64,000 nucleotides of DNA from an uncultured delta proteobacterium (GTDB taxonomy: Bacteria > Myxococcota_A > Polyangia > Polyangiales > Polyangiaceae), in contig CAVQUB010000003.1 in the NCBI GenBank assembly GCA_963716725.1, positions 96,001 to 160,000 on the forward strand, read 5' to 3'. The position numbers and the translations under genes were made by a program. A model generated the notes under the pieces. That model ran no database searches. It had not been told where the DNA came from and saw only the letters and a program-made list of their open reading frames with translations. Shown one piece after another: positions 26,648-38,712 of the stretch (positions are counted from its first letter, which is position 1; each line of letters starts with the position of its first letter).

Positions 26648-28273
26648 ATGTACGTGTGTCCGAGCTGCGGCTTGCCCGGCGATGCGCCGGGGTTTTGCAC
26701 CGAAGACGGGGCCTCCCTGGTCTTCGCGGACGATCCCCTGCTCGGGCAGACCGTGGGCAGCTATCGCATCGCGCGCTTGATCGGCCAAGGCGGCATGGGA
26801 GCGGTCTACCTCGGGGTGCAGCCCAGCATCGGCAGCCGCGTCGCCATCAAGGTGTTGTCGCAATCCGCGAGCTCGACTTTGGGCATGGTGGAGCGCTTCT
26901 TCGCAGAGGCCCGCGCCGCCAACCGGATCCGCCACGAGAGCATCGTGAACGTCCTCGACCTGGCGCTCCTACCGGACCAACGTCCCTACATCGTGATGGA
27001 GTGCCTCGAGGGCGCCCCGCTCACCAGCCACTTTGCCGCGCACCGGCCCTTCCCCCTGGGCTCTCTGGTGCGGATCGCCCTCGAAACCCTCAGCGCCCTC
27101 GAAGCCGCGCACTCCCACGGCATCACGCATCGAGATCTCAAGCCGGACAACTTGTTCGTGACCACCCTTGGGCGAGTGAAGGTCCTCGACTTCGGCATCG
27201 CCAAGCTGCGCCCGGAGCTCGGTGGCCAAAGCGACGCCACTCGCACCGGCGCGCTCCTGGGCACGCCGCAGTACATGTCGCCGGAGCAGGCGCTGGGACA
27301 GACGGCGGACGCCCGCGCCGATCTCTATTCGCTCGGCGTCGTGCTGTACGAAGGCGCTGCCGGCCAACGCCCATTTCTAGCCGACTCGCTCTTCGAGTTG
27401 CTACGGCAACACATCGAAGCGAGCCCGGCGAGACCCTCGACGCTTCGTCACGACCTGCCGCCCGCCCTCGAGCACGTGATCTTGCGGGCGATGGAGAAGG
27501 ACCGGAACCACCGCTTTCAGTCCGCCACCGAGATGGCCGAAGCGCTCACGGCATTGCTGCCGTCGTTGCCGGACGCGGGAGTGACGGCGAAAGCCCTGCC
27601 GCGCGTCGGCCCACCCACACCCGTCCAGCTTGCGCCAACGGCCGCGCAGAGCGGGGTAGGTTCGCGCACGAGCGTCGGCGGCACCTCGCTCGCCCCGGCG
27701 AGGAAGCGTTCGTCACCGGTGGGCTTGATCGTGGGTATCATGGGCGCGCTGATCGCGCTCGCGGCCGTCGCGTCAGCCATCATCGTCTACTTGGTCGCCG
27801 ATCGAGACTCGGTCAACGTCAACTTCGACGGCACGGGCCCCACGGGCTCCGTCGGCGGGGCGCCCTTCCCAGACCTCGACGCGGCGCGGGTCGCCGCCCG
27901 CAAACACTTCCCAGACGCCGAGCTCGTGTCGATCTCGATGCTGGGAGTACAGGCCGACGGGAGCGTCTCGCTGACCAAGCCCACGCACGTCATCAGCTTC
28001 GTTTTTCGCTCGCCGTCCGCCTCGAAGGCCAGCAAGACCTGCGTCGTGTCCGTGAGCACCACCATGTACGGGACCTTCGCCGCGCCCTTCGAAGACGCCA
28101 CCTACAACTGCCAGCAGCCGACCATCCCGGCACCTCGTTGTTCGGTGGCTGCGATCATGAAGAAGGCCTCCCCCGGGGTGAAGCAGCTGGCCTTCGGACA
28201 CTTGCCGACTCCGTGGACCTGGTCGCTCATCGGTGGGCCCGACGGCGTGAAGTCCGTCCCCGACGACTGCTGA
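26648..28273 (+). CDS. Membrane Ser/Thr protein kinase with N-terminal Zn ribbon
   Basis: CPSC..FC.EDG, IGQGGMGAVY, HRDLKPDN, DFG, GTPQYMSPE, TM segment. Confidence 0.93.
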   Translation: MYVCPSCGLPGDAPGFCTEDGASLVFADDPLLGQTVGSYRIARLIGQGGMGAVYLGVQPSIGSRVAIKVLSQSASSTLGMVERFFAEARAANRIRHESIVNVLDLALLPDQRPYIVMECLEGAPLTSHFAAHRPFPLGSLVRIALETLSALEAAHSHGITHRDLKPDNLFVTTLGRVKVLDFGIAKLRPELGGQSDATRTGALLGTPQYMSPEQALGQTADARADLYSLGVVLYEGAAGQRPFLADSLFELLRQHIEASPARPSTLRHDLPPALEHVILRAMEKDRNHRFQSATEMAEALTALLPSLPDAGVTAKALPRVGPPTPVQLAPTAAQSGVGSRTSVGGTSLAPARKRSSPVGLIVGIMGALIALAAVASAIIVYLVADRDSVNVNFDGTGPTGSVGGAPFPDLDAARVAARKHFPDAELVSISMLGVQADGSVSLTKPTHVISFVFRSPSASKASKTCVVSVSTTMYGTFAAPFEDATYNCQQPTIPAPRCSVAAIMKKASPGVKQLAFGHLPTPWTWSLIGGPDGVKSVPDDC

Positions 28274-28339: not shown

Positions 28340-28762
28340 ATGGATTCCTTCAGCGTATGCGAGTCGTGCCATCGGCACATCAAGGCGACCGAAACAGCGT
28401 GTCCGTTCTGTCGCTCGTCCAAGAGCCGCATCGGCGTGACCGCCGCGCTCGTGGTGGGCGTCGGGCTCTCACTCGCCGCATGCGGTGGTGATGGCGACGG
28501 CGGAGGCAGTGGTGGCACCGGCGGCGCGGCGACGGGCGGCAGCGGTGGCACCGGTGGCACCGCGACCGGTGGCGCAGCTGGGAGCGGCGGCGCGGCAGGC
28601 AGCAACACCGGCGGCCAGGGCGGCATCGCACCGGCCTACGGACCTCCTCCGATGGGCGGCGCGGCCGGCACGGCGGGATCGGGCGGCTCGGCAGGCAGCA
28701 ACACCGGCGGCCAGGGCGGCGCAATGCCAGCGTATGGTCCACCGCCGTCCGACGCGGGCTGA
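28340..28762 (+). CDS. Putative RiPP/spliceotide precursor lipoprotein 1 (2x PAYGPPP)
   Basis: CESCHRHIK....CPFC leader, GVGLSLAA-CGG lipobox, Gly linker, duplicated GSNTGGQGG..PAYGPPP. Confidence 0.8.
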   Translation: MDSFSVCESCHRHIKATETACPFCRSSKSRIGVTAALVVGVGLSLAACGGDGDGGGSGGTGGAATGGSGGTGGTATGGAAGSGGAAGSNTGGQGGIAPAYGPPPMGGAAGTAGSGGSAGSNTGGQGGAMPAYGPPPSDAG

Positions 28763-28764
28763 AG

Positions 28765-29124
28765 GTGAACTCGTACGTCGTCTGTGAGTCGTGTCGGCGA
28801 CACGTGAAATCGGATTCGAGTGCGTGTCCGTTTTGTCACGCGGGCAAGCGCCATTCGGCGGCGGCAACCGCGGTGATCGTGGGCGTCGGACTGTCGCTCT
28901 CGGCCTGCGGGGGTCCGAACTCCGGCATGCCCGCGCCCGTTTACGGGCCACCGGCCCACACTGAGCAAGGCGGCGGGCCGGCGACGGTCTACGGCCCACC
29001 TCCCGTGGACGAGCACTCCGGCGATCATCACGGCGAAATCGCGGGCGAAGATGCCCTAGTGGACAGAGACGCGGGCCCGTTGGCGGTCCCCGCCTACGCG
29101 CCTCCACCGCCTCACCCGCACTGA
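28765..29124 (+). CDS. Putative RiPP/spliceotide precursor lipoprotein 2 (2x VYGPP, 1x AYAPPP)
   Basis: CESCRRHVK....CPFC, GVGLSLSA-CGG, APVYGPPA, ATVYGPPP, VPAYAPPP. Confidence 0.8.
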   Translation: MNSYVVCESCRRHVKSDSSACPFCHAGKRHSAAATAVIVGVGLSLSACGGPNSGMPAPVYGPPAHTEQGGGPATVYGPPPVDEHSGDHHGEIAGEDALVDRDAGPLAVPAYAPPPPHPH

Positions 29125-29144
29125 ACCGCGCTCCGCTGTCGCGT

Positions 29145-29156
29145 TGACATCCATCA
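29145..29156. promoter_or_regulatory. TGAC-N4-ATCA near-palindrome upstream of precursor 3
   Basis: TGACATCCATCA about 38 nt upstream of the ATG. Confidence 0.4.
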
Positions 29157-29193
29157 TCTCGCTGACTGCGCGGGCGTGGAAGACTTCCGACCC

Positions 29194-29643
29194 ATGGAGT
29201 CGTTCTTCGTCTGCGAATCGTGCCGTCGGCACGTGAAGGCCGCCGAGAGCAGCTGTCCATTCTGTCGCACCTCGCGCAGTCGCATGGGCGTCACCGCCGC
29301 TCTCGTGGTCGGCGTCGGTCTCTCGCTGGCCGCGTGCGGCGGCGACACGGATCGTGATGGCGGCGGCGGCACCGGCGGAGCTGCCAGCGGCGGCACGGGC
29401 GGCAGCGGTGGCGGAGTCGCCGGCAGCGGCGGCGCGTCGAGCGGTGGCACCGGCGGCGACGCTGGCAGTGGAGGCATGGTCTCGCTCTACGGCCCACCGC
29501 CGGTGGGCGGCGCGGCCGGCACTGGCGGCGCTGCGGGCTCCGCGGGGTCGGGCGGCGCGGCCGGCACTGGCGGCGCTGCGACGGGCGGCAGCGGCGGCGG
29601 TGCTCCGCTCTACGGTCCGCCTCCGCCTCCTCCTGACAAGTGA
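29194..29643 (+). CDS. Putative RiPP/spliceotide precursor lipoprotein 3 (2x LYGPPP)
   Basis: CESCRRHVK....CPFC, GVGLSLAA-CGG, VSLYGPPP, APLYGPPP. Confidence 0.8.
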   Translation: MESFFVCESCRRHVKAAESSCPFCRTSRSRMGVTAALVVGVGLSLAACGGDTDRDGGGGTGGAASGGTGGSGGGVAGSGGASSGGTGGDAGSGGMVSLYGPPPVGGAAGTGGAAGSAGSGGAAGTGGAATGGSGGGAPLYGPPPPPPDK

Positions 29644-29944
29644 TCCCGGCGACGCGCCGGCTTCCAGGGACGTGAACGCTCGCGCTCGCCGGCGCTGAAC
29701 GGCGGTTGCTGCGCCGGTCGCTCGCGTCCGCGTTCCGCGATACGTTCGGCGCGACGACGTGACGTTGATCGCCCGGGACCCGCGGGGTGAGATTTGGGCT
29801 CTGCGCATGCAGTTCGAACGCGGAGATGATCCCACGTTGGATGCGAATCCCATCGTGCGCGTGCGCCGAGCCAAGCGCGATTGAGTTCCGACAACGCCGA
29901 TTGGCGCCCTCGCCGCAGCCCACCTCAGGGAGTGCCGGCGCGCT

Positions 29945-30095
29945 CGGGCCACAGCGCAGAGAGAGTCAGCTCGATGGCGTCGAAGGGCTCGAGCCGGACC
30001 ACGTCCGCTTCCCCGTGCACGGCCGCGAGGCGGTAGCTGTCGGCGTCCAGGCGAAACACCTCCACGCTTTGTGGCGGGGTTCGCGGCCATGGCCC
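29945..30095 (-). pseudogene. Uma2/DUF820 endonuclease C-terminal remnant
   Basis: Minus strand reads NPATK, then (1-nt shift) VEVFRLDADSYRLAAVHGEADVVRLEPFDAIELTLSALW; no 5' part. Confidence 0.55.
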
Positions 30096-30132
30096 AGGGC
30101 GAATGTAGCATCAGATCGCCCACCTCACGCGA

Positions 30133-31527
30133 TCAGCGCGGCAGCTGGTTCCACTGCCGCGAACGCTCGCGCCACGGCATTGCCTCTTCGAGCTGCCGTG
30201 ACAGGCGCAGCACCACGTCGTCGCGGCCCTGGCGGCCGACGATCTGAACGCCGTAGGGCAGCCGGGAGTCGGAGACGCCCGCCGGGATGCTGGCCGCCGG
30301 TTGTCCGGTCACGTTGAAGGGCGCGGTGAAGCTGCCGAGCGCTGAGATCGCGATGAAGGCCGCCTCGGGTTCGAGCCCGGCAAACGCGCCGACCTTGGGC
30401 GCGTACTGACCCACGGTCGGCGTCAGCAGCACGTCCGCGTCGCCGTGAAACTCGAGCACGCGCTGCAACAACACCTGCTTCAAGCGCTGGGTCTCGGCGT
30501 GGTCGAGCCCGCGCCCCACCTGGCGCAACCAACGGGTCACGGGCTGCAGCACGCTCTCGCTGATGGACGGCACGTTGGCCAACATGCGTTGCCAGAGCGG
30601 AAGGAAGTCCTCGAGTCGGCCTTGCACCATCGGCACTTGCTCCACGCGATGTCCGAAGCCCTCGAGAATGTGCGCTGCGCTCTCGACGGCCGCCGCGATC
30701 TCCGGCTCCACGTGCCCTATCATGGCTTCGGTGCAGAAACGGATCTTCAGTGAGCGCAAGGTCGGCAAGGCCTGCTGGGTGAGGCAGCTGTCTTGCGCAT
30801 AGTGCCTGTGCGTCATGGGGTGACCGCGCATCACGTCCAGCATGGCCGCCGCGTCTGCCACGTCGTGCGTGAGGGGTCCCATGGTGGACAGCGCCAAGGT
30901 GTTCACGCGCCCGTGCAGATTGCCGAGCAGGCTGTGGGTGGGCTTGAAGCCGTAGAGGTGACAGAACGCTGCGGGGATGCGCACCGAGCCGCCGCCGTCG
31001 GAGCCGTGCGCCAGCGGAACGAGCTCCGCGGCCACCGCCGCACCGGAGCCGCCGCTGGAACCGCCAGGGGTGTGCTCGGGGTTCCACGGATTGCGCGTCG
31101 GAGCGTGGATCAAGGGCTCGGTGACGGGCAGCGCGCCAAACTCGGAGGTGGCCGTCTTGCCCAGGACCACGAAGCCGCCGCGCTTGAGCAACTTGGTCAC
31201 CGGTGCGTCGATGGGAGCGCGAAAGTAGCGGAACGCGCGCGAGCCCAGCTGAGTGCGCGTCCCGCGCATGAGCGCCAGGTCTTTGAGCCCGAGGGGAACG
31301 CCGTGGAAGATCGGTAGCTCGTCCGCCGGAGTCGAGCGGCTCTTCTGGTCCTTGCCGCGTGCGGCTCGCAGCGCGCTCGCCTCGAGCACACTCACGAACG
31401 CGCTGTACTTGCCGTCGAGCTGCTCGATGCGCGAGAGGTAGAAGCGGCAGGCTTCTTCGCTGGAGATCTCGCGCTGCCGAATCGCGGCGGCGAGCTCCAG
31501 GGCGGTCATCTTCAATAGCTCGTGCAT
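30133..31527 (-). CDS. Amidase signature family protein
   Basis: GVPLGLKD, GKTATSEFG, TPGGSSGGS, GSDGGGSVRIPA. Confidence 0.95.
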   Translation of the reverse strand: MHELLKMTALELAAAIRQREISSEEACRFYLSRIEQLDGKYSAFVSVLEASALRAARGKDQKSRSTPADELPIFHGVPLGLKDLALMRGTRTQLGSRAFRYFRAPIDAPVTKLLKRGGFVVLGKTATSEFGALPVTEPLIHAPTRNPWNPEHTPGGSSGGSGAAVAAELVPLAHGSDGGGSVRIPAAFCHLYGFKPTHSLLGNLHGRVNTLALSTMGPLTHDVADAAAMLDVMRGHPMTHRHYAQDSCLTQQALPTLRSLKIRFCTEAMIGHVEPEIAAAVESAAHILEGFGHRVEQVPMVQGRLEDFLPLWQRMLANVPSISESVLQPVTRWLRQVGRGLDHAETQRLKQVLLQRVLEFHGDADVLLTPTVGQYAPKVGAFAGLEPEAAFIAISALGSFTAPFNVTGQPAASIPAGVSDSRLPYGVQIVGRQGRDDVVLRLSRQLEEAMPWRERSRQWNQLPR

Positions 31528-31575
31528 TGCGCGTCGCTCTAGCTCGAAGTCGAGCGGGATGCGAGACTCGGCCCC

Positions 31576-32739
31576 ATGAAAGACGGCCTGGGTCCAGCAG
31601 CCGTGCGTCGCCTGGCGGGCGCGCTCCGGAGGTCCGACCCGAGCTTCGACGAGGCCGCCTTCGTGCGCGATGCCTGTCGCGGCCTTGCCCAGCTCGAGCT
31701 CAAAGCGCGCGTGCAGCACGTGATCGATTCTCTCGAGCGCCATCTGTCCGAGAATTTTCCGCGCGCGCTCGAGATCGTGGTGGGCGCGGGCGAGCACCGG
31801 GACAGCGGTGACGCCGACGACCCGCTGCGCGGCTTTGCTTGGTGGCCGCTGATCGACTGGGTCGCGCAAGCAGGCCTGCACGACTTCGATCGTTCCATGG
31901 CCGCGTTGCGCCGGCTGACCGGGTTGTTCTCGGCGGAGTTCGCCGTGCGCCCCTTCCTGGAGCGCTACCCAAAGCGGTCCCTCACGCTGTTGAAGCGCTG
32001 GACGCGAGACGACGACGCAAACGTGCGCCGCTTGGTCTCGGAAGGCACGCGACCGCGATTGCCCTGGGGCAAGCACTTGCAGGCGTTCCGCGAGGATCCG
32101 GGTCCGACGCTGGAGCTGCTCGAGCTCCTGAAGGACGACGAGTCGGAGTACGTGCGCCGCTCAGTCGGCAATCATTTGAACGACATTGGCAAAGACCACC
32201 CGGACCTGCTGCTCGACGTGTGCAGGCGCTGGAACCGTGGAGCCTCGCCGGAACGGCGCTGGATCATCGAGCGCGCAACGCGATCATTGGTCAAGGCGGG
32301 ACACCCTGGAGTGTTCGCGTTGCTGGGGCACACGACCGATCCGAAGGTGAGGCTCTCGGAACTGACCGTCGTGCCAAAGCGCGTGCGCCTGGGCGGCGCC
32401 ATCGAGATCTCGTTCGCGCTCGGGTCGAAGGCCGCGCGCGCCCAGAATCTGGTGGTTGACTACGCGATCTTCCACCAGAAGGCCGACGGCAGCACGAAGC
32501 CCAAGGTGTTCAAGCTGAAGAAGCTCACGCTCGCCGCCGGCGGCAGCGCGGAGATTGAGAAACGGCACGCCTTCCGCGCCATCTCCGCCCGCCGCTACCA
32601 CGCGGGCGAGCACGCCGTGGAGATCTTGGTGAACGGAAAGGCGCTGGGGCGAGCCGGCTTCGTGCTCACTCTGCCGAGCGCGGAGGCTCGATCTCGACCT
32701 GGTACTCGCGCCTCAACCCTGCGCGGGAAGCTCCGCTGA
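31576..32739 (+). CDS. DNA alkylation repair protein (HEAT-repeat glycosylase-like)
   Basis: FSAEFAVRPF, VRRLVSEGTRPRLPW, YVRRSVGNHLNDIGKDHP, KVFKLK. Confidence 0.9.
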   Translation: MKDGLGPAAVRRLAGALRRSDPSFDEAAFVRDACRGLAQLELKARVQHVIDSLERHLSENFPRALEIVVGAGEHRDSGDADDPLRGFAWWPLIDWVAQAGLHDFDRSMAALRRLTGLFSAEFAVRPFLERYPKRSLTLLKRWTRDDDANVRRLVSEGTRPRLPWGKHLQAFREDPGPTLELLELLKDDESEYVRRSVGNHLNDIGKDHPDLLLDVCRRWNRGASPERRWIIERATRSLVKAGHPGVFALLGHTTDPKVRLSELTVVPKRVRLGGAIEISFALGSKAARAQNLVVDYAIFHQKADGSTKPKVFKLKKLTLAAGGSAEIEKRHAFRAISARRYHAGEHAVEILVNGKALGRAGFVLTLPSAEARSRPGTRASTLRGKLR

Positions 32740-33921
32740 CCAGTCGGCCGGAGCGTCTTCGACGGTCAGCGCGAAAAGCGCGGTGTCGCGGATCGTCCCG
32801 GGAGCCTTGGAGACCAAAGTCAGGCGCTCACGCTGGTTCCCGCGCAGCATCTCGAGGGCGCGGTGGTGGCAATAGGGGTTGTTGCCGGTCTTGCCCAGCA
32901 GCGTCGAGCTGGTCCACACGCAGCCGCCCTTACAGGTCTCGGCGTAGTAGCAGGAGCGGCAGTAGCCCCAGAGATCGTCGATGGCGAACTTGCGCGTGAT
33001 GTGCAGCTCCGGAGCCGTGTCCCAGATCTCGCGGATGCTCTTGTCGCGCACGTTGCCGCCGACGTAACCCTGTGACGCCATGGCCGAGCAGCCCTTGATG
33101 TCACCGTTGGCCTCGACGCCCAAGGTCCGCACGCCACCTCCACAGCCGCTCGAGAAGCCGTGGCGCGTGCGATCGGCACGCAGCAGGTGCTCGTAGGGCC
33201 CAAAGTAGCCCACGTTGTTGCCGGGCCAGAGCTTGACGCCTCGCTCGTCGGCGCGCTGCCGCGCTGCCGCGATGCGCGGCATGACCTCCAGGATGTCGTA
33301 GGGCTGGAGCCAGAGATCGTCGGCCTCCGTCGCCCGCCCCATCGGCACCATCAGCTGCACCTGCCAGCCATAGGCGCCTCGATCCGCGATTAGATCCAGG
33401 ATGGCGTCGAGCTCGCGGTAGTTCTTGCGGTTGACCTGGGTGTTGCTGCCGACCGCGACGCCACGCTCGCCGAGCAACTCCATGGCCCGGAGCGCGGAGC
33501 GATGGCTGCCCTTCAGACCGCGCAGGTCATCGTGGGTGGCCTCGAGCCCGTCGCAAGACACGCTCACCGCGGTCACGTCGGCGTCCCGCAGCCCGTCCGC
33601 GAGTTCCGGCGTGATGCCGCGCCCGCCCGTCACCATCGTGCACTCCATGCCGCGCGCCCGGATCGCGCGCACCACGGTCAAGAAGTCGTCGCGCAGGTAG
33701 GCCTCGCCGCCGTGCACGGCGATCTCAGCGGTGCCCATGGCGTGCAGCTGCTCGATCACGTCGAGCGACTCTTCGGTCGTCAGCTCGTTGGGGTGCGCCT
33801 TGCCAGCGCGTGTGCCGCAGAAGCGGCAGTGTTGATCGCAACGCAGCGTGGTCTCCCAAACCACGAGCAGGGGGCGGTAGTCGTGGACGACTTGCAGTCG
33901 GCGAGGCTCGGCGGAAGACAC
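32713..33921 (-). CDS. Radical SAM/SPASM peptide maturase, PlpX (splicease)-like
   Basis: VWETTLRCDQHCRFCGTRAG, WQVQLMVPMGRA, PGNNVGYFGPYE, GC.GG..TLGVEANGDIKGC, LWGYCRSCYYAETCKGGC.WT, GNNPYCHHRAL. Confidence 0.88.
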   Translation of the reverse strand: MSSAEPRRLQVVHDYRPLLVVWETTLRCDQHCRFCGTRAGKAHPNELTTEESLDVIEQLHAMGTAEIAVHGGEAYLRDDFLTVVRAIRARGMECTMVTGGRGITPELADGLRDADVTAVSVSCDGLEATHDDLRGLKGSHRSALRAMELLGERGVAVGSNTQVNRKNYRELDAILDLIADRGAYGWQVQLMVPMGRATEADDLWLQPYDILEVMPRIAAARQRADERGVKLWPGNNVGYFGPYEHLLRADRTRHGFSSGCGGGVRTLGVEANGDIKGCSAMASQGYVGGNVRDKSIREIWDTAPELHITRKFAIDDLWGYCRSCYYAETCKGGCVWTSSTLLGKTGNNPYCHHRALEMLRGNQRERLTLVSKAPGTIRDTALFALTVEDAPADWSAELPAQG

Positions 33922-33967: not shown

Positions 33968-33979
33968 TGACCGTCGTCA
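33968..33979. promoter_or_regulatory. TGAC-N4-GTCA palindrome upstream of the rSAM gene
   Basis: TGACCGTCGTCA about 47 nt upstream of the GTG at 33921; overlaps the SDR stop codon. Confidence 0.5.
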
Positions 33980-34678
33980 GATGTACTGACCAGAATCCAC
34001 GCGGATCACCTCGCCGGTGATGCAGCGTGCGGCGTCGGACAGCAGAAAAGCCACGGCGTTGGCCACATCCCGCGGCGTGGGCAGCTGAGGCAAGACCGCC
34101 TCGGCTTGGGCCTTGTCGCGGAACTCGGCGGGCAACGCCAGGGTCATCTCGGTCAGCACCATGCCCGGCGCGACGGCGTTCACCGTGACGCCCTTGGCGC
34201 CGAGCTCGCGCGCCGCCGCCTTGGTCAAGCCGATCAGGCCGGCCTTCGCCGCCGAATAGTTGGTCTGGCCGAATTTGCCGCGCAGCCCATTGATGCTCGT
34301 CAGGTTCACGATGCGGCCGTGACCCGCGGCGCGCATCCGCGGCGCCAGCGCGCGCACCATGTTGAAAGCACCCGTCAGGTTCACGTCCAAGACAGACTGC
34401 CATTCGTCGTCACTCATCTTGCCGAGGCTCTTGTCGCGGGTGATGCCGGCGTTGTTCACCAGCAACGTGGTGGTGTCGGGCAAGCCCTCGATGGCCGCCG
34501 CGACGGACGCCGCCTGCGCCACGTTCACCTTGCGGAACTCGGCGCCCGCCAGCGCTTCGCCAGGCTCGAGGTCGAAGACAAACACGCGAGCGCCCTGCTC
34601 GAGCAGAAGTTCGGCGATGCTGCGACCAATCCCCCGCGCTGCGCCCGTGACCACCGCTGAACGGCCCGACATCGTCAT
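33977..34678 (-). CDS. SDR oxidoreductase (FabG/acetoacetyl-CoA reductase-like)
   Basis: TGAARGIG, NNAGITRD, GQTNYSAAK, NAVAPG. Confidence 0.93.
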   Translation of the reverse strand: MTMSGRSAVVTGAARGIGRSIAELLLEQGARVFVFDLEPGEALAGAEFRKVNVAQAASVAAAIEGLPDTTTLLVNNAGITRDKSLGKMSDDEWQSVLDVNLTGAFNMVRALAPRMRAAGHGRIVNLTSINGLRGKFGQTNYSAAKAGLIGLTKAAARELGAKGVTVNAVAPGMVLTEMTLALPAEFRDKAQAEAVLPQLPTPRDVANAVAFLLSDAARCITGEVIRVDSGQYI

Positions 34679-35019
34679 GCCCCGCACATGCCGCGGCGGA
34701 CGCGGGAAGTCCACCCTAGCGCGGCAGCGGACGCAGGTAGCTCGGCCGCGCCGGCTCCCAGCGACCGCGCACCCAAACGTAGCGCACACCATCCCAGTGC
34801 CAGTAGCCGCGCACCCAGACCCAGTTCGATCCGAGGGGGGCCTCGGGGGTGGGAATCGGGTCGCGCCTTGGGCGCGCCGCTGGTGAGCTGCCCAGCGTGA
34901 GGCTCGTCAGCGGGCGGCGGCGGCGTCTCCCGCGCCGCCTCGCTGTTCGTGGCGCGGCGCTCGACCCCGGTCACGCACCCGCTGAGGCCGACTGCCACGA
35001 CGAACGAAAACAGGCGCAC
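34675..35019 (-). CDS. Possible small lipoprotein
   Basis: VRLFSFVVAVGLSG-C lipobox; remainder low-information. Confidence 0.35.
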   Translation of the reverse strand: MRLFSFVVAVGLSGCVTGVERRATNSEAARETPPPPADEPHAGQLTSGAPKARPDSHPRGPPRIELGLGARLLALGWCALRLGARSLGAGAAELPASAAALGWTSRVRRGMCGA

Positions 35020-35074: not shown

Positions 35075-36208
35075 ATGACCGCGTCGCTCTCGGATGCGCT
35101 CGATCGCCTCCCGGCGGATATTCAGGAGCGCCTGCAACGATACGCCTTCGACCGCCCGCGCTTCTTGGGCCTGGCCCAGCGAGTCGCGGGCGGATCCGCG
35201 GACCAAAACCGCGTCCACGGGCAGGTGGATCCACCATCACCGGGCGACGTGCTCGATCTTCCGCCCGCGGGCTCGGCGGATCGAAAGCGCCTCGAGCAGA
35301 TCGGGCTCGAGGCCTTGGCGCAAGGGCAGTGCGCGCTGGTGGTGCTCGCTGGCGGCATGGCGACGCGCATGGGAGGCGTGGTCAAGGCCTTGGTAGAGGC
35401 GGTGCCGGGACACTCGTTCCTCGACCTCCGGCTCGCGGAGCTCGCGCACATCGAGCGGCTGACAGGACGCGCGCCGCCCTTCTGGTTGATGACCAGCGAC
35501 GGCACCGAAGCGCCAACTCGGGCCGCGCTCGGCGCCCGGCTCGACACGGGTCAGATCGCCACCTTCACTCAGCACCTGTCGCTGCGCCTGGAGCCCGACG
35601 GCAACTTGTTCCTTGATCCCGCCGGCAGGCCCAGCCTGCACTCATCCGGGCACGGTGACCTGCCCGACGCGCTACGCGCGAGCGGGCTGATCGGCCGCTT
35701 CGTCGAGAGCGGCGGCCGAGTCGTCACCATGGCGAACATCGACAACCTCGGCGGCACCCTCGATCCGGTGCTGATCGGCTGGCACCTGGATCACGGAAAG
35801 CCCGTGAGCTGCGAGGTCGTGGACAAAGAGCCGAGCGATCGCGGAGGCATCCCCGTGCGTTGGAACGGCCGAGCGGTGGTGCTCGAGGAGTTCCGCCTTC
35901 CCGAGGGCTTCGATCCGACCACGGTCCCGGTCTTCAACACCAACACCTTCCACTTTTCGGCCCGGGCGCTCCTCGAGCTGGCGATGGATTGGACCTTCTT
36001 CGTCGCGCACAAGAAGGTCGACGCTTCCCCCGTGATCCAGTTCGAGCGCCTGATCGGTGAGGTCACCAGTCACCTCGATACGCGCTTCGTGCGCCTCCCG
36101 CGCGACGGCGCGAACTCTCGTTTCTTGCCAGTCAAAGACAACGACGAGCTCGCTCGTCAACGCTCGGCCATCGAGTTGGTGGCCCGGGCGCGAGGAATGC
36201 TCCCATGA
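35075..36208 (+). CDS. UTP--glucose-1-phosphate uridylyltransferase (UDPGP family)
   Basis: LAGGMATRMGG.VK, LMTS, SGHGD, NIDNLG, FNTNTF, RFLPVK. Confidence 0.9.
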   Translation: MTASLSDALDRLPADIQERLQRYAFDRPRFLGLAQRVAGGSADQNRVHGQVDPPSPGDVLDLPPAGSADRKRLEQIGLEALAQGQCALVVLAGGMATRMGGVVKALVEAVPGHSFLDLRLAELAHIERLTGRAPPFWLMTSDGTEAPTRAALGARLDTGQIATFTQHLSLRLEPDGNLFLDPAGRPSLHSSGHGDLPDALRASGLIGRFVESGGRVVTMANIDNLGGTLDPVLIGWHLDHGKPVSCEVVDKEPSDRGGIPVRWNGRAVVLEEFRLPEGFDPTTVPVFNTNTFHFSARALLELAMDWTFFVAHKKVDASPVIQFERLIGEVTSHLDTRFVRLPRDGANSRFLPVKDNDELARQRSAIELVARARGMLP

Positions 36209-38712
36209 GGCTTCGTCCGTTTGGAATACTCAGCTGCCTTTCGCTGGTGTTGGCTGCCGCCGCCGCGCCCGCCCAGGACGTCGTTCAGCGCCCGACTCCC
36301 TTGCCGGCCCTCGGGCGCAGCGTGGCGGGTACCGACGACACGACAGCCTTGGTGCAAAACCCGGCGAACCTCGCGTTTCTGCCGGGCTCCGAGTTTCGGT
36401 GGAGCTCGATCTACCTGGACGAGTCCAACCAGGTGCCGTGGCAAGGCCACGCCTTCGCGCTGGGGTTCCCGCTTCCCTACGTGCCCGTCGCCACGGGCAT
36501 CCGGCTCGATCTCGTCGATCCGCCCTACTCGGCCATCTCGGGACCCTTTGGGCAGTTCAACTACCAGTGGCTGACCTGGGGCGTCGCCGCGGGCTCGGAC
36601 TTCTCGTCGCTCGGGCTCTCACTCCAACGAACCTACTCGGACGCCGCGGTCATGGACGGCCTCTCTTCGTTCACCATCGGCTACAGCGCGCGACCCTTCG
36701 ACCACCTGGCGATGTCGCTGGTCGCCCACGACATCAACAGCCCGACGAACTCCCTCGGTTTCGGCCTCGAGCGGTCCTACGACATCGCGCTCGCGATCCG
36801 CCCCACCGGCTCCCGCGCCCTCGAGGTCGGCCTCGAAGGCAAGTACGTCGATGTTCGCCAGGGGTACTGGACGCCGCGAGCGACACTCGGCATCGACGTG
36901 CCCTATTTGGGGCGCCTTCGTGGCGACTTCTCCATGAGTCGGCCCGAAGAATCTCACCGGCGCGCGTGGCTCGCGTCCGCGAACATGGCCTTCAACGTGA
37001 GCGGAGCTGGGGGCAGCGCCGAGTTTGCCGGTGGCAGCGTGACCGGCACAGGCCTCGGCGAGAAGGGCTCCTACGGCGCCCAGGTCGAGGTCGCGTTCCG
37101 TGGCTTCCGCGAGACCTCGGGCATGGAAGCCCCGCGCTACTCGGTGCGCCTTCGCCTGGAAGAGACGCCCGGGACCCGAGGCCACGTCGCGCTCTTGAAG
37201 CAACTCTGGAGCCTCGCCGAAGAAGACAAGGTCGATGCAGTGGTGCTCGAGCTCCGCAGCTCTCCCGCATCCTCCATGGCCCACGTGCAAGAGCTCCGAG
37301 ACGCCGTGCAGCTCCTGCGCGCGAACGGCAAACGCGTGCTGTGTCACCTCGAAGACGCGGGCGGCTCCGAGCTGTACCTGTGCGCGGCCGCCAACAAGAC
37401 CCTGATGAACCCGGCCGGCGGCTTGCGCTTCGCGGGCCTGAAGTCCCAGGCAATGTACTTTGCGTCGCTGCTCGGCAAGCTGGGCATCCGGGCCGATTTC
37501 GTGCGCATCGGGCAGCACAAGAGCGCCCCCGAGCGGCTCACCCGCGACTCGGCCACCGAGGTCTCGCGAGCAGACAAGATCGATCTCTTGCAGCAGCACG
37601 AACGGCAGCTCGTCGAGGGCGTCTCGCAGGGACGGCGCATCGCCGTGGCTGATCTGCGCAAGCGCATCGCCGGGGGTCCGTACATCGCATCCGAGGCCTA
37701 TACCCACGGCTTGATCGACGGTTATGCCTTCGACGACGAGGTCGGCAGCGCCGTGGACAAGCTCGTGGGGCGCCCGACTGTCCTGATCGACGACGAACGC
37801 GCACCGAGGGCGCCAGCTCGCTTCGGCGTGGGCCGGCGCGTCGCCCTCGTCTACGTCGACGGCGACATGGTCGACGGCAAGAGCAAGACCGTCCCGCTCG
37901 TCGGCATGAAGCTCGCCGGCTCGTACACCATCGCCAAGACCCTGAAAGAGTCACGCGAGAACCCGATGATCGGCGCGGTGGTGCTGCGCATCGAGTCGCC
38001 CGGCGGCTCGGCCATGGCCAGCGACGTGATTTGGCGCGAAGTTCAGCTCACCGCCAAGGTCAAACCGGTGGTCGTCAGCATGGGCGCTTCGGCCGCCAGC
38101 GGCGGCTACTACATCGCTTCGCCCGCGACGCGAATCTTCGCCAACCCGCTCAGCATCACGGGCAGCATCGGCATCTTCTACGGCAAGGCCGACGTGGCCG
38201 AGCTCTTGAAGAAGATCGGCGTCAGCGTCGAGACCTACAAGACGGCTCCGCGCGCCGACGTCGAGAGCATCTACCGCCCCTTCACCGACAGCGAGAAGGC
38301 CGAGCTCCAGAAGAAGGTCGGGCAGTTCTACGACGTGTTTCTGACCCGCGTCTCTCAAGGCCGAAAGCTCGCCAAGCAGGACGTCGACAAGGTGGGTCAA
38401 GGGCGCGTCTGGACCGGTGAGCAGGCGCTGAACCGAAAGCTGGTGGACGAGCTCGGCGGCCTGCGCCAAGCGCTGGCCCACGCGCGAAAGCTCGCCGGTC
38501 TGCCCGACCACGCGCAAATCCTCGAGCTTCCGCCGCCGGACCAGTCGCTGGTGGGCAAGCTGCTCGGGCTCGAGGGCGTGGGCGCCCGCGCCGGCGCCGA
38601 AGCCATCTTGCCAGGAGAGATCGTGGATCTCGCGCGGGCCCTTGCGCCCTTCACGGTGCACGCGCCGGACAAGCCCCTCGCACGCATGGAGTTCTTGCCG
38701 GTGAAGCCGTGA
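36205..38712 (+). CDS. sppA: Signal peptide peptidase SppA (S49) with N-terminal beta-barrel-like domain
   Basis: IGQHKSAPE, LRIESPGGS, SMGASAASGGYY, TGSIGI, GRVWTGEQA; N-terminal TALVQNPANL followed by beta-strands. Confidence 0.9.
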   Translation: MRLRPFGILSCLSLVLAAAAAPAQDVVQRPTPLPALGRSVAGTDDTTALVQNPANLAFLPGSEFRWSSIYLDESNQVPWQGHAFALGFPLPYVPVATGIRLDLVDPPYSAISGPFGQFNYQWLTWGVAAGSDFSSLGLSLQRTYSDAAVMDGLSSFTIGYSARPFDHLAMSLVAHDINSPTNSLGFGLERSYDIALAIRPTGSRALEVGLEGKYVDVRQGYWTPRATLGIDVPYLGRLRGDFSMSRPEESHRRAWLASANMAFNVSGAGGSAEFAGGSVTGTGLGEKGSYGAQVEVAFRGFRETSGMEAPRYSVRLRLEETPGTRGHVALLKQLWSLAEEDKVDAVVLELRSSPASSMAHVQELRDAVQLLRANGKRVLCHLEDAGGSELYLCAAANKTLMNPAGGLRFAGLKSQAMYFASLLGKLGIRADFVRIGQHKSAPERLTRDSATEVSRADKIDLLQQHERQLVEGVSQGRRIAVADLRKRIAGGPYIASEAYTHGLIDGYAFDDEVGSAVDKLVGRPTVLIDDERAPRAPARFGVGRRVALVYVDGDMVDGKSKTVPLVGMKLAGSYTIAKTLKESRENPMIGAVVLRIESPGGSAMASDVIWREVQLTAKVKPVVVSMGASAASGGYYIASPATRIFANPLSITGSIGIFYGKADVAELLKKIGVSVETYKTAPRADVESIYRPFTDSEKAELQKKVGQFYDVFLTRVSQGRKLAKQDVDKVGQGRVWTGEQALNRKLVDELGGLRQALAHARKLAGLPDHAQILELPPPDQSLVGKLLGLEGVGARAGAEAILPGEIVDLARALAPFTVHAPDKPLARMEFLPVKP

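Follow-up and report, generated by a model that had tools for sequence, protein, structure and literature searches.

A splicease-like radical SAM/SPASM enzyme and zinc-ribbon precursors with lipoprotein-type signals are encoded together across the Myxococcota

Introduction

A stretch of 64,000 nucleotides from a soil/wastewater myxobacterium (hereafter the window) carries at one locus the genes for a radical SAM enzyme and three small putative lipoprotein precursors. This raises the question of whether the enzyme acts on the precursors and, if so, by which chemistry and with what kind of product. The initial annotation had interpreted the locus as a splicease with lipoprotein substrates, an interpretation that is supported by the present analysis.

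Spliceases, XYG sites and lipoprotein RiPPs have each been published already. Morinaka 2018 is reportedly the source for spliceotide systems, and the main splicease survey is said to be that of Scott et al. 2022 (Chem 8:2659), with 939 predicted systems in 189 genera according to reviews of the field. That survey probably already lists the enzymes studied here, and its supplements may include the precursors of this clade.

Splicing at an XYG site lowers the mass of the substrate by 135.06 Da, and elastase, chymotrypsin and cathepsin B are among the proteases that spliced products inhibit (PMC11626197). The known systems (PMC11414181, PMC11626197) comprise type I, represented by PlpX/PlpY with PlpA and by PcpXYA (Pleurocapsa), and the binary type II, represented by RhaX/RasX and RcsX (Rheinheimera). 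In the binary systems, which have no Y protein, the leader element is bound on the enzyme, as stated in the accessible sections of PMC11414181.

Results and Discussion

Organization of the locus

The three precursor genes are arranged in tandem, and 3.07 kb separate the end of the third from the end of the gene encoding the radical SAM/SPASM enzyme (rSAM), which lies on the opposite strand (Table 1). Searches of Pfam and NCBIfam identified the neighbours as an amidase, a HEAT-like protein, an SDR and a kinase. The amidase and HEAT/DNA_alkylation-like genes were rejected as parts of the system, as neither occurs at the corresponding place in two related genomes (G138 and G093). They are an insertion, and the 3 kb separation is a local and derived state of the host genome. 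The SDR gene was likewise dropped, other genes being situated between it and the rSAM gene in G138, and so was a MacAB/Lol-like ABC set that adjoins the enzyme-precursor pair in G085 alone. Among the loci that were read, genes for a dedicated protease or exporter are not found repeatedly next to the pair, which fits the use of the general lipoprotein pathway. A promoter and terminator scan gave no signal exceeding that of shuffled sequences.

Contigs from an independent study (run X5), with a likeness of 95-99%, tile the entire stretch and differ by a single additional insert, about 770 nt long, behind precursor 3; that the gene order is an artefact of a single assembly can thus be dismissed. 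In metatranscriptome X20, three small contigs of 95-99% likeness fall on the HEAT-like gene and the rSAM gene (33297-33516) and almost none on the precursors, with the reservation that RNA libraries can contain DNA and contigs cannot show transcription.

Table 1. Features of the locus, with nucleotide positions in the window
Feature	Position (nt)	Strand	Remarks
Precursor 1	28340-28762	+	140 aa
Precursor 1, zinc ribbon	28358-28411	+	aa 7-24
Precursor 1, h-region and lipobox	28472-28483	+	LAAC, Cys48
Precursor 1, AYGPP sites	28634-28648; 28730-28744	+	aa 99; aa 131
Precursor 2	28765-29124	+	119 aa; GTG start 2 nt past precursor 1 stop
Precursor 2, ribbon	28783-28836	+	
Precursor 2, lipobox	28897-28908	+	LSAC, Cys48
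Precursor 2, VYGPP sites	28939-28953; 28987-29001	+	aa 59; aa 75
Precursor 2, AYAPP variant	29092-29106	+	aa 110
Precursor 3	29194-29643	+	149 aa
Precursor 3, ribbon	29212-29265	+	
Precursor 3, lipobox	29326-29337	+	LAAC, Cys48
Precursor 3, LYGPP sites	29485-29499; 29608-29622	+	aa 98; aa 139
Amidase gene	30133-31566		between precursor 3 and rSAM gene
HEAT/DNA_alkylation-like gene	31576-32739		between precursor 3 and rSAM gene
rSAM, splicease-like radical SAM/SPASM enzyme	32713-33921	-	402 aa
rSAM, SPASM cysteines	32920-33144	-	
rSAM, predicted ribbon-docking surface	33190-33225 (GYFGPYE)	-	also Y325/Y326 and H353; complex model
rSAM, radical SAM motif CX3CX2C	33817-33840	-	CDQHCRFC, aa 28-35 (C28/C32/C35)
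SDR gene	33977-34792		upstream of rSAM gene

A family of zinc-ribbon precursors

The three tandem paralogues with a Cys-rich N-terminus, a lipobox and a linker are all present, as the initial annotation had described them. Each begins with an invariant CxxCxRH..CPFC zinc ribbon, continues with a lipoprotein-type signal that has L-[AS]-A-C at its end, and finishes in a tail predicted to be disordered. Over the three tails there are six xYGPP sites and one AYAPP site, in agreement with the earlier count. The tail of precursor 1 is Gly-rich (43% Gly) and that of precursor 2 is not; precursor 3 is 70% identical to precursor 1, which matches the A1 profile with an E value of 2.7e-21.

Searched against Pfam and NCBIfam, the precursors exceeded the cut-off of no family, the ribbon giving sub-threshold RING-like matches only in Pfam. 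None of 16 precursors reached E 0.001 against NCBIfam, and their sole recurrent match there was TIGR03913 itself (3 of 16, at E 0.002), while the ESM Atlas returned unnamed Myxococcota clusters only. In the host genome the ribbon signature, searched as a regular expression, is confined to these three open reading frames, and a profile search added one more copy, adjoining the second rSAM paralogue. The precursor family is large and extends over the phylum; public data contain 4074 cluster representatives, and a protein has one to six sites.

The radical SAM/SPASM enzyme

Every motif of the PlpX-like series that had been noticed in a gene about 3 kb from the precursors was recovered. Besides the radical SAM motif, the rSAM contains WQVQLMVPMGRA, PGNNVGYFGPYE and GNNPYCHHRAL, and its SPASM pattern is complete with seven cysteines (C260-x12-G-x4-C278, C321xxC324x5C330xxxC334 and C351). 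Both the CX3CX2C motif and the seven SPASM cysteines are invariant in 24 aligned relatives. Pfam scores amount to 80.5 bits for Radical_SAM and 31.1 bits for SPASM, and the enzyme carries no signal peptide.

Scoring against TIGR04103 and TIGR03913, as the initial annotation had suggested, placed these two models at the top. TIGR04103, the PlpX family model, is the best match (421.2 bits, E 3.5e-126, profile positions 5-386 of 412), followed by TIGR03913, the 'GDL motif peptide-associated radical SAM/SPASM maturase' (rad_SAM_trio), with 396 bits. The third model, TIGR04133 of the peptide/cofactor SPASM group, scores 154 bits, which puts TIGR04103 about 270 bits, and the two top models about 250 bits, ahead of the other SPASM families. 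Because of this ranking, the rSAM does not group with non-peptide maturases, a grouping that would have spoken against the earlier reading. All these scores lie below the curated cut-offs (725 for TIGR04103, 592 for TIGR03913 and 425 for TIGR04133), so that the rSAM belongs to neither the TIGR04103 nor the TIGR03913 equivalog, and its chemistry is therefore extrapolated across family borders. Sister copies of the enzyme in relatives are likewise sub-cut-off, with 415-518 bits on TIGR04103, and the rSAM forms a clade of its own.

Predicted docking of the ribbon on the enzyme

The ribbon is the part of the precursor that is predicted to dock on the rSAM. A complex model of the precursor 2 chain with the enzyme gave ipSAE values of 0.92, 0.93 and 0.91 in three runs, as against 0.12 for the best of three controls. 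Of 80 solved complexes, 58 attained that mark, as did 2 of 110 mismatched pairs; the counts are rough, since the alignments were our own. At least 18% of the contacts are common to the runs, and the partner pLDDT is at least 62. On the ribbon side, the confident contacts comprise residues 1-2, 4, 6, 10-13 and 22-23, of which R12, H13, P22 and F23 are invariant, and on the enzyme side residues 240-246, 254, 256, 325-326, 328-329, 353, 356 and 402. The complex model gave no confident placement of a Tyr-Gly site in the active site.

Proposed mechanism

With two gene families, their linkage and co-occurrence, conserved motifs and a predicted docking established here, we propose a two-component system of the spliceotide kind in which the general lipoprotein pathway would substitute for a dedicated leader protease and exporter. 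We regard it as rather probable that in the cytoplasm the rSAM attaches to the ribbon and splices X-Tyr-Gly sites, after which export, lipidation and cleavage of the product would fall to the lipoprotein pathway. The precursor would be synthesised in the cytoplasm as a ribbon followed by a signal peptide and a disordered tail, and the rSAM would bind the folded N-terminal ribbon through a surface formed by GYFGPYE, CxxCYY and HH. It would next act on X-Tyr-Gly in the tail, likely by the reaction of PlpX, RcsX and RasX, removing a tyramine equivalent and leaving an alpha-keto-beta-amino amide derived from residue X. Subsequently, the signal peptide would carry the modified tail through Sec, and Lgt, Lsp and Lnt would lipidate the invariant Cys and cleave ahead of it. 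Because cleavage falls ahead of the lipobox Cys, the ribbon would be discarded with the signal peptide. The outcome would be a flexible chain, anchored by its lipid and bearing two or three keto-amide groups, whose likely task at the cell envelope or on vesicles is to inhibit serine or cysteine proteases. Tyramine excision, this order of events, lipidation and protease inhibition are all steps that we infer.

The Tyr-Gly site and the chemistry at it

Relatives of the precursors were gathered with a profile limited to the N-terminal 58 positions, and 142 of the 150 best passed the lipobox pattern. At least one YG is present in 128 of these 142. Beyond the lipobox, Gly is the next residue for 322 of their 347 Tyr, and a further family count gave 127 of 131; with a Gly frequency of 0.21, both lie far above compositional expectation. 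Residue X is Ala, Val or Leu at the host sites; across the family it is mostly Leu, Ala or Met and ranges over L, A, M, V, P, I, R and E. There are also members whose site starts at the lipobox Cys or two residues past it. Published PlpA splice tags contain P-L-Y-G-L-P, according to the accessible literature, and thus share with the host sites the frame P-x-Y-G-x-P.

The pairing of enzyme and precursors might be real and the chemistry at Tyr-Gly nevertheless a different one that SPASM enzymes are known to perform, such as a carbon-carbon or ether crosslink of Tyr, an epimerisation or a hydroxylation, in which case no keto-amides would arise. Room for this is left by the sub-cut-off scores and separate clade of the rSAM, by the models, none of which places YG in the active site, and by members with Y-A or Y-M replacing Y-G, among them precursor 2 with its AYAPP site. 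We nonetheless consider it unlikely, for the two top models of the rSAM are those of the splicease family and its sister, well ahead of other SPASM families, and the sole invariant feature of the site, the Tyr-Gly dipeptide, is also the published splice site. A crosslink would moreover call for a partner, but no second residue suited to that role is conserved and X itself varies.

The lipoprotein-type signal

The splicing mechanism proposed above further assumes that the precursors would be lipidated by the lipoprotein pathway, and all three host precursors satisfy the sequence rules for a signal peptidase II (SPII) signal. Among 147 family representatives, position -3 is L/V/I/A/M in 94%, position -2 is A/T/G/S in 93% and position -1, directly before the Cys, is G/A/S in 99%. 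Ahead of this Cys lies an uncharged run with a median length of 14 residues (IQR 14-15), and the segment preceding the run is net positive in 93%. An N-region of 25-45 residues that includes a folded domain is atypical for a lipoprotein signal and counts against our main reading.

This atypical arrangement speaks for a reading in which the precursors would be modified without being lipoproteins, the hydrophobic stretch acting as a permanent signal-anchor that keeps the ribbon cytoplasmic and tethers the tail by a transmembrane helix, with another role for the Cys. We judge this quite improbable. The uncharged stretch is as short as a signal peptide, not a membrane-spanning helix, and its end in the 147 representatives is a canonical lipobox whose Cys is invariant. 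The ribbon is conserved as strongly as expected of a functional domain, but a ribbon serving enzyme recognition alone would be conserved just as much. In addition, the accessible text of PMC13056109 demonstrates RiPP precursors of the lipoprotein pathway for another enzyme class.

Linkage and co-occurrence in relatives

Orthologues of the rSAM with 86, 83, 71, 63 and 60% identity (in G093, G138, G080, G085 and G064, respectively) are each adjoined by one or two convergently oriented family members, an adjacency shared by both genomes of the same genus and by three further families. Across the five genomes that were fully listed, all nine enzyme copies of at least 48% identity have a family member within 5 kb (eight of them within 300 bp), as opposed to none of the three copies at 35-37% identity. 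Likewise, in a sample of the phylum a family member adjoins 37 of 55 enzyme copies compared with 0 of 18, phylum-wide linkage being confined to the enzyme clade of the host rSAM. The other 18 of the 55 copies have no N-domain match nearby, and divergent ribbons occur at some of them. At named Polyangia loci, 69 of 80 have at least one N-domain open reading frame within 2.5 kb (104 in all, 96 of them with at least one YG); no N-domain match was found within that distance at the remaining 11, seven with cut flanks and four with full flanks. The co-occurrence across the Myxococcota that the initial annotation had called for is strong, with adjacency as the rule: in 151 genomes of the order, 89 have both families and 57 neither, three have the enzyme only and two the N-domain only, the latter as weak matches.

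It is therefore very improbable that the precursors are ordinary low-complexity envelope proteins and the host rSAM acts elsewhere: two unrelated genes and 3 kb intervene between opposite strands, YGPP alone is unremarkable in the host genome (nine other G/P-rich open reading frames have at least two Y[GA]PP) and four close enzyme relatives lack a family member within 2.5 kb, but the adjacency in the same orthologue group, its confinement to this enzyme clade, the near-perfectly shared presence and absence of the two families and the docking score relative to its controls all contradict it.

Comparison with known systems

The proposed splicing of lipoproteins resembles the known spliceotide systems in its radical SAM/SPASM enzyme with the PlpX family model as best match, in substrates whose X-Tyr-Gly sites, one to several in number, share the frame P-x-Y-G-x-P, and in the predominance of Leu, Ala or Met as X, comparable to the characterised MYG and LYG sites. 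As in the binary systems, there is no Y protein, and a leader element is predicted from the complex model to dock on the enzyme. In contrast to the known systems, the host enzyme scores under the family cut-off, no PCAT-type protease/exporter is present and the leader is a Cys4 zinc ribbon with a lipoprotein signal instead of a Nif11, NHLP or helical leader. Pfam and NCBIfam searches of the host precursors and neighbours detected neither a Nif11/NHLP-type leader nor a Y (PqqD-like) partner. Furthermore, the product would remain lipid-anchored and disordered, whereas that of the known systems is a released peptide.

A second comparison is offered by the DAG-RiPPs, hybrids between RiPPs and lipoproteins that are products of MNIO enzymes (DybA/DybH, NedA/NedBC), as far as they are described in the accessible text of the report (PNAS 2026, PMC13056109). 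In both cases an enzyme without signal peptide would modify its substrate in the cytoplasm, and the precursor has an SPII signal in which the lipobox Cys is invariant (here by sequence rules), so that leader removal, lipidation and export would fall to the general lipoprotein pathway. Judged by the same accessible text, the host system differs in that its modifying enzyme is a radical SAM/SPASM protein and not an MNIO, that the modified residue would be Tyr and not Cys, and that a folded zinc ribbon stands ahead of the signal peptide. The terms 'radical SAM', 'rSAM', 'splice' and 'zinc' have no occurrences in the available portion of PMC13056109.

As regards the model families themselves, we take TIGR04133, from its short name rSAM_w_lipo, to be the radical SAM enzyme of an rSAM-plus-lipoprotein pair. 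The host differs from both the TIGR03913 and the TIGR04133 systems, its rSAM scoring below the two cut-offs and its precursors matching no NCBIfam model. The limited collection of literature searched contained no description of zinc-ribbon or lipoprotein splicease substrates and no paper naming TIGR04103 or TIGR03913.

The pairing is conserved across the phylum, and its likely outcome is membrane-anchored proteins with protease-inhibitor-like keto-amide groups. We more tentatively suggest, as an idea somewhat short of an even chance, that a ribbon ahead of a lipoprotein signal is a new type of RiPP leader, which would dock on the SPASM side, license splicing of the tail and be removed by signal peptidase II. 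The Myxococcota would then possess a family of triacylated, disordered multi-keto-amide lipoproteins, acting on the envelope or vesicles as covalent-reversible protease traps of a predatory bacterium. If so, tyramine splicing would extend beyond small secreted peptides to a routine modification of envelope lipoproteins throughout the phylum, and would provide a natural precedent for multivalent, membrane-tethered keto-amide warheads. Radical SAM spliceases would join the MNIOs as a second enzyme class feeding the lipoprotein pathway, which would serve as leader protease and exporter. The ribbon, as a compact and portable recognition domain, could aid splicease engineering, and for myxobacterial biology the system points to a putative layer of self-protection or neutralisation of prey proteases.

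A last difference from the known spliceotide systems lies in the many paralogous substrates per genome, some of them distant from the enzyme. As a point against the main reading, seven of the 23 family members in the five fully listed genomes are far from any enzyme gene, and some genomes have up to 27 family members for two to six enzymes.

Organization of the precursor genes

The splicease-like radical SAM/SPASM gene (hereafter rSAM) and the three lipoprotein-type precursors with YGPP cores described in the initial annotation were confirmed in the sequence at the positions assigned to them, in a window that covers G000:C3:96001-160000 and has a G+C content of about 68%. The three precursors share a common plan: a Cys4 ribbon spanning residues 7-24 (CxxCxRH[VI]K..CPFC) is followed by a short basic part, an uncharged stretch closed by the lipobox L-[AS]-A-C at Cys48, and a low-complexity tail in which Tyr is confined to xYGPP or AYAPP sites. 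No named family was found for them in NCBIfam, Pfam or the ESM Atlas. The closest public proteins carry the source names 'Myxococcales/Polyangiaceae bacterium', and the related loci belong to Polyangia MAGs. Sites with Ala in place of Gly after the Tyr (AYAPP, LYAGPP) occur at 29092-29106 and in the family cluster representatives P0143, P0164, P0212 and P0248.

Features of the precursor-rSAM region
Feature	Position	Strand	Remarks
Ser/Thr protein kinase	26648-28273	+	Pkinase, 148 bits; directly upstream of precursor 1
Precursor 1	28340-28762	+	140 residues; AYGPP twice
Precursor 2	28765-29124	+	119 residues; VYGPP twice, plus AYAPP
Precursor 3	29194-29643	+	149 residues; LYGPP twice
Amidase	30133-31566	-	Amidase, 319 bits; between precursors and rSAM
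HEAT/DNA_alkylation-like gene	31576-32739	+	between precursors and rSAM
rSAM (radical SAM/SPASM)	32713-33921	-	HMM matches and motifs
SDR gene		-	upstream of rSAM, on its strand
Exported protein	36205-38712	+	835 aa; two Peptidase_S49 stretches

Classification of the enzyme

All enzyme motifs quoted in the initial annotation are present in the rSAM sequence. In NCBIfam, TIGR04103 (nif11-class peptide radical SAM maturase 3; 421 bits) and TIGR03913 (396 bits) are the best matches, well ahead of the next family (154 bits), but both scores lie under the curated cut-offs (725 and 592, respectively). Judged by these scores, the rSAM is assigned to the broad clade of TIGR04103/TIGR03913, yet outside both equivalogs. 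Likewise, TIGR04103 is the top model for seven relatives and paralogues (246-518 bits), all under the cut-off. We take TIGR04103 to be the model describing PlpX. According to a review, the PlpX subclass corresponds to IPR026482. All 24 aligned sequences retain the CX3CX2C motif and seven SPASM cysteines without variation. NCBI labels the enzyme only as 'radical SAM protein'. Separately, TIGR03913 (477 positions) weakly matches three of the 16 precursor proteins in alignment A2 (best E 0.002), which suggests that its C-terminal part, unaligned to the rSAM, may hold a ribbon-like or precursor-like piece.

Linkage of enzyme and precursors

As the 3 kb gap in the window left the enzyme-precursor link uncertain, relatives were compared. 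In two genomes of the same genus, G093 and G138 (86% and 83% enzyme identity), a single family member and the rSAM gene converge with their ends 2-8 nt apart, and the amidase and HEAT-like gene are missing at the equivalent place. Convergent adjacency is also found in G080 (71%, two members), G085 (63%) and G064 (60%). Judging from these arrangements, the gap is a local insertion (30133-32739) splitting an otherwise adjacent gene pair, and the three precursor copies are a local expansion.

In the wider clade, enzymes of about 50% identity are flanked by the precursor family too, for example with two enzymes enclosing two precursors (G016), two enzymes with three precursors (G129) or, in the complete genome G045, one enzyme followed by two precursors. 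Within five genomes listed in full, all nine enzyme copies of at least 48% identity, including a second copy from the source genome (contig C8), lie no more than 5 kb from a family member, eight of them within 300 bp; the sole exception at the shorter distance is the rSAM of the window. None of the three copies at 35-37% identity in these genomes has a family member within 5 kb. Matches to the N-terminal ribbon-lipobox domain (N-domain) lie by an enzyme gene in 16 of 23 cases and elsewhere in seven.

The co-occurrence of enzyme and precursor expected across Myxococcota was borne out in larger samples. Using an enzyme call at E 1e-60 or better, 151 genomes of the order yielded the enzyme in 92 and the N-domain in 91: both were present in 89 (among them the unpublished genome G123), one alone in five (enzyme only, 3; N-domain only, 2, at E about 4e-4) and neither in 57, counts given without a test statistic because related genomes are not independent. 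Across a phylum sample, again of 151 genomes, 37 of 55 enzyme copies of at least 40% identity had an N-domain match within 5 kb; for the more distant copies the figure was 0 of 18. Inspection of six enzyme copies lacking a nearby match revealed a divergent ribbon protein or YG protein adjoining three; by the filter used, the other three had none. Finally, 80 named Polyangia loci were surveyed, including records titled Polyangiaceae, Labilithrix, Sorangium, Byssovorax and Sandaracinaceae. In 69 of them, one or more N-domain ORFs lie within 2.5 kb, giving 104 ORFs, of which 99 share the strand of the enzyme and 96 contain at least one YG; the 11 loci with no N-domain match comprise seven with cut flanks and four with full flanks.

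Two further paralogues were noted in the source genome. A minimal family member of 88 aa, whose single YG starts two residues past the lipobox Cys, precedes the C8 copy (G000:C8:228638-230046; L069/L002), which is 50% identical to the rSAM. The third (G000:C21:154935-156284; L003), a 449-aa rSAM/SPASM protein of 35% identity, is encoded downstream of an SDR gene and lacks a ribbon partner; its C-terminus consists of a hydrophobic stretch up to a lipobox-like G-I-G-C, followed by a short tail rich in Pro.

Conservation of the site and signal

Relatives of the precursors were recruited by the N-domain alone, using a profile of 58 N-terminal positions (alignment A1) in which nine residues are invariant (C7, C10, R12, H13, C21, P22, F23, C24 and C48). 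Among 1.84 billion cluster representatives, the search returned 4074 at E 0.001 or better, 312 of them at 1e-10 or better. All of the best 150 of these 4074 carry the ribbon and 142 satisfy a strict lipobox pattern. In the tails of these 142, Tyr is followed by Gly in 322 of 347 instances (Gly frequency, 0.21) and at least one YG is present in 128; the remaining 14 are mostly fragments or Y-A and Y-M variants. Position X of X-Y-G is occupied by L (97), A (51), M (51), V (24), P (20) or I (19), and YG is most commonly followed by A-P, G-P, L-P or P-P. According to a published table, PlpA-derived splice tags contain P-L-Y-G-L-P, so that a P-x-Y-G-x-P frame is common to these tags and the precursor sites described here.

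In 147 representatives, signal positions -3, -2 and -1 are in most cases L/V/I/A/M, A/T/G/S and G/A/S, respectively, the uncharged run has a median length of 14 residues, and the segment ahead of it is net positive in 93%. By these features the family signal has the appearance of a classic SPII signal. In G073 and G276 (L078, L079), position X of X-Y-G is occupied by the lipobox Cys itself.

Predicted docking of the ribbon

A complex of the enzyme (alignment of 24 sequences) with precursor 2 (alignment of 16) was modeled. The ipSAE values for this pair were 0.92, 0.93 and 0.91, versus 0.12, 0.00 and 0.00 for three controls; among solved complexes 58 of 80 reach the mark applied, and among mismatched pairs 2 of 110, rates that are only rough here owing to the custom alignments. 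Contact agreement between runs was at least 18% and partner pLDDT at least 62. Since, according to PMC11414181, no solved splicease complex exists, this result is unlikely to stem from model memory.

On the precursor side, all confident contacts fall in the ribbon (residues 1-2, 4, 6, 10-13 and 22-23). Those of the enzyme involve 240-246 (within GYFGPYE), 254, 256, 325-326 (the YY of CxxCYY), 328-329, 353 and 356 (H353 and L356 in the CHHRAL segment) and 402. The contact motifs are invariant among aligned relatives in this clade, and the 35%-identical paralogue lacking a ribbon partner differs in several of them (F240Y, P242K, Y325E, Y326H and H352Y), a small detail consistent with the docking model. 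No YG site was placed in the active site of the modeled complex. Overall, the model supports a predicted binding of the ribbon by the enzyme.

Proposed mechanism

Taken together, these data show that the enzyme and precursors form a conserved enzyme-substrate pair and suggest that recognition is through the ribbon and that Tyr-Gly is the target. As far as sequence analysis reaches, linkage, co-occurrence, sites and docking model support the 'lipo-spliceotide' interpretation of the initial annotation. Given the nearest characterized family of the enzyme and the identity of the site, the reaction would be excision of tyramine at Tyr-Gly. Following lipobox rules and the precedent of MNIO-made DAG-RiPPs (PMC13056109), the product would be lipidated and the ribbon removed together with the signal peptide. 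The spliced product may act as a protease inhibitor, by analogy with spliced Rheinheimera peptides, whose inhibition of elastase, chymotrypsin and cathepsin B depends on splicing (PMC11626197). We regard the full mechanism, combining tyramine splicing, lipoprotein processing and a keto-amide product, as moderately probable.

Splicease substrates that are lipoproteins or are led by a zinc ribbon were not found described in the literature searched, which included a 2022 survey via citing papers only. Knowledge of spliceases and their XYG sites dates from 2018. As relayed in reviews and a later paper, the 2022 survey listed 27 confirmed and 939 predicted systems, with YG-rich neighbors of PlpX-like enzymes spread over 189 genera. 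RiPP-lipoprotein hybrids appeared in print in 2026, for MNIOs only (PMC13056109).

Neighboring genes

The kinase, which holds the equivalent place in G138, begins with a CxxC..C ribbon-like start and features an outer domain and, C-terminally, a membrane segment. The exported protein, located 2.3 kb from the rSAM, has about 300 N-terminal residues with no Pfam match ahead of its Peptidase_S49 (SppA-type signal peptide peptidase) stretches. Its gene is syntenic in G138, the association being seen in the same genus only; the proximity of a signal-peptide peptidase to genes with long, discardable signal peptides is suggestive. In a related strain from an independent wastewater study (run X5, record 18), the stretch separating precursor 3 from the amidase gene is longer by about 770 bases (at 29753), indicating that this spacer varies among strains.
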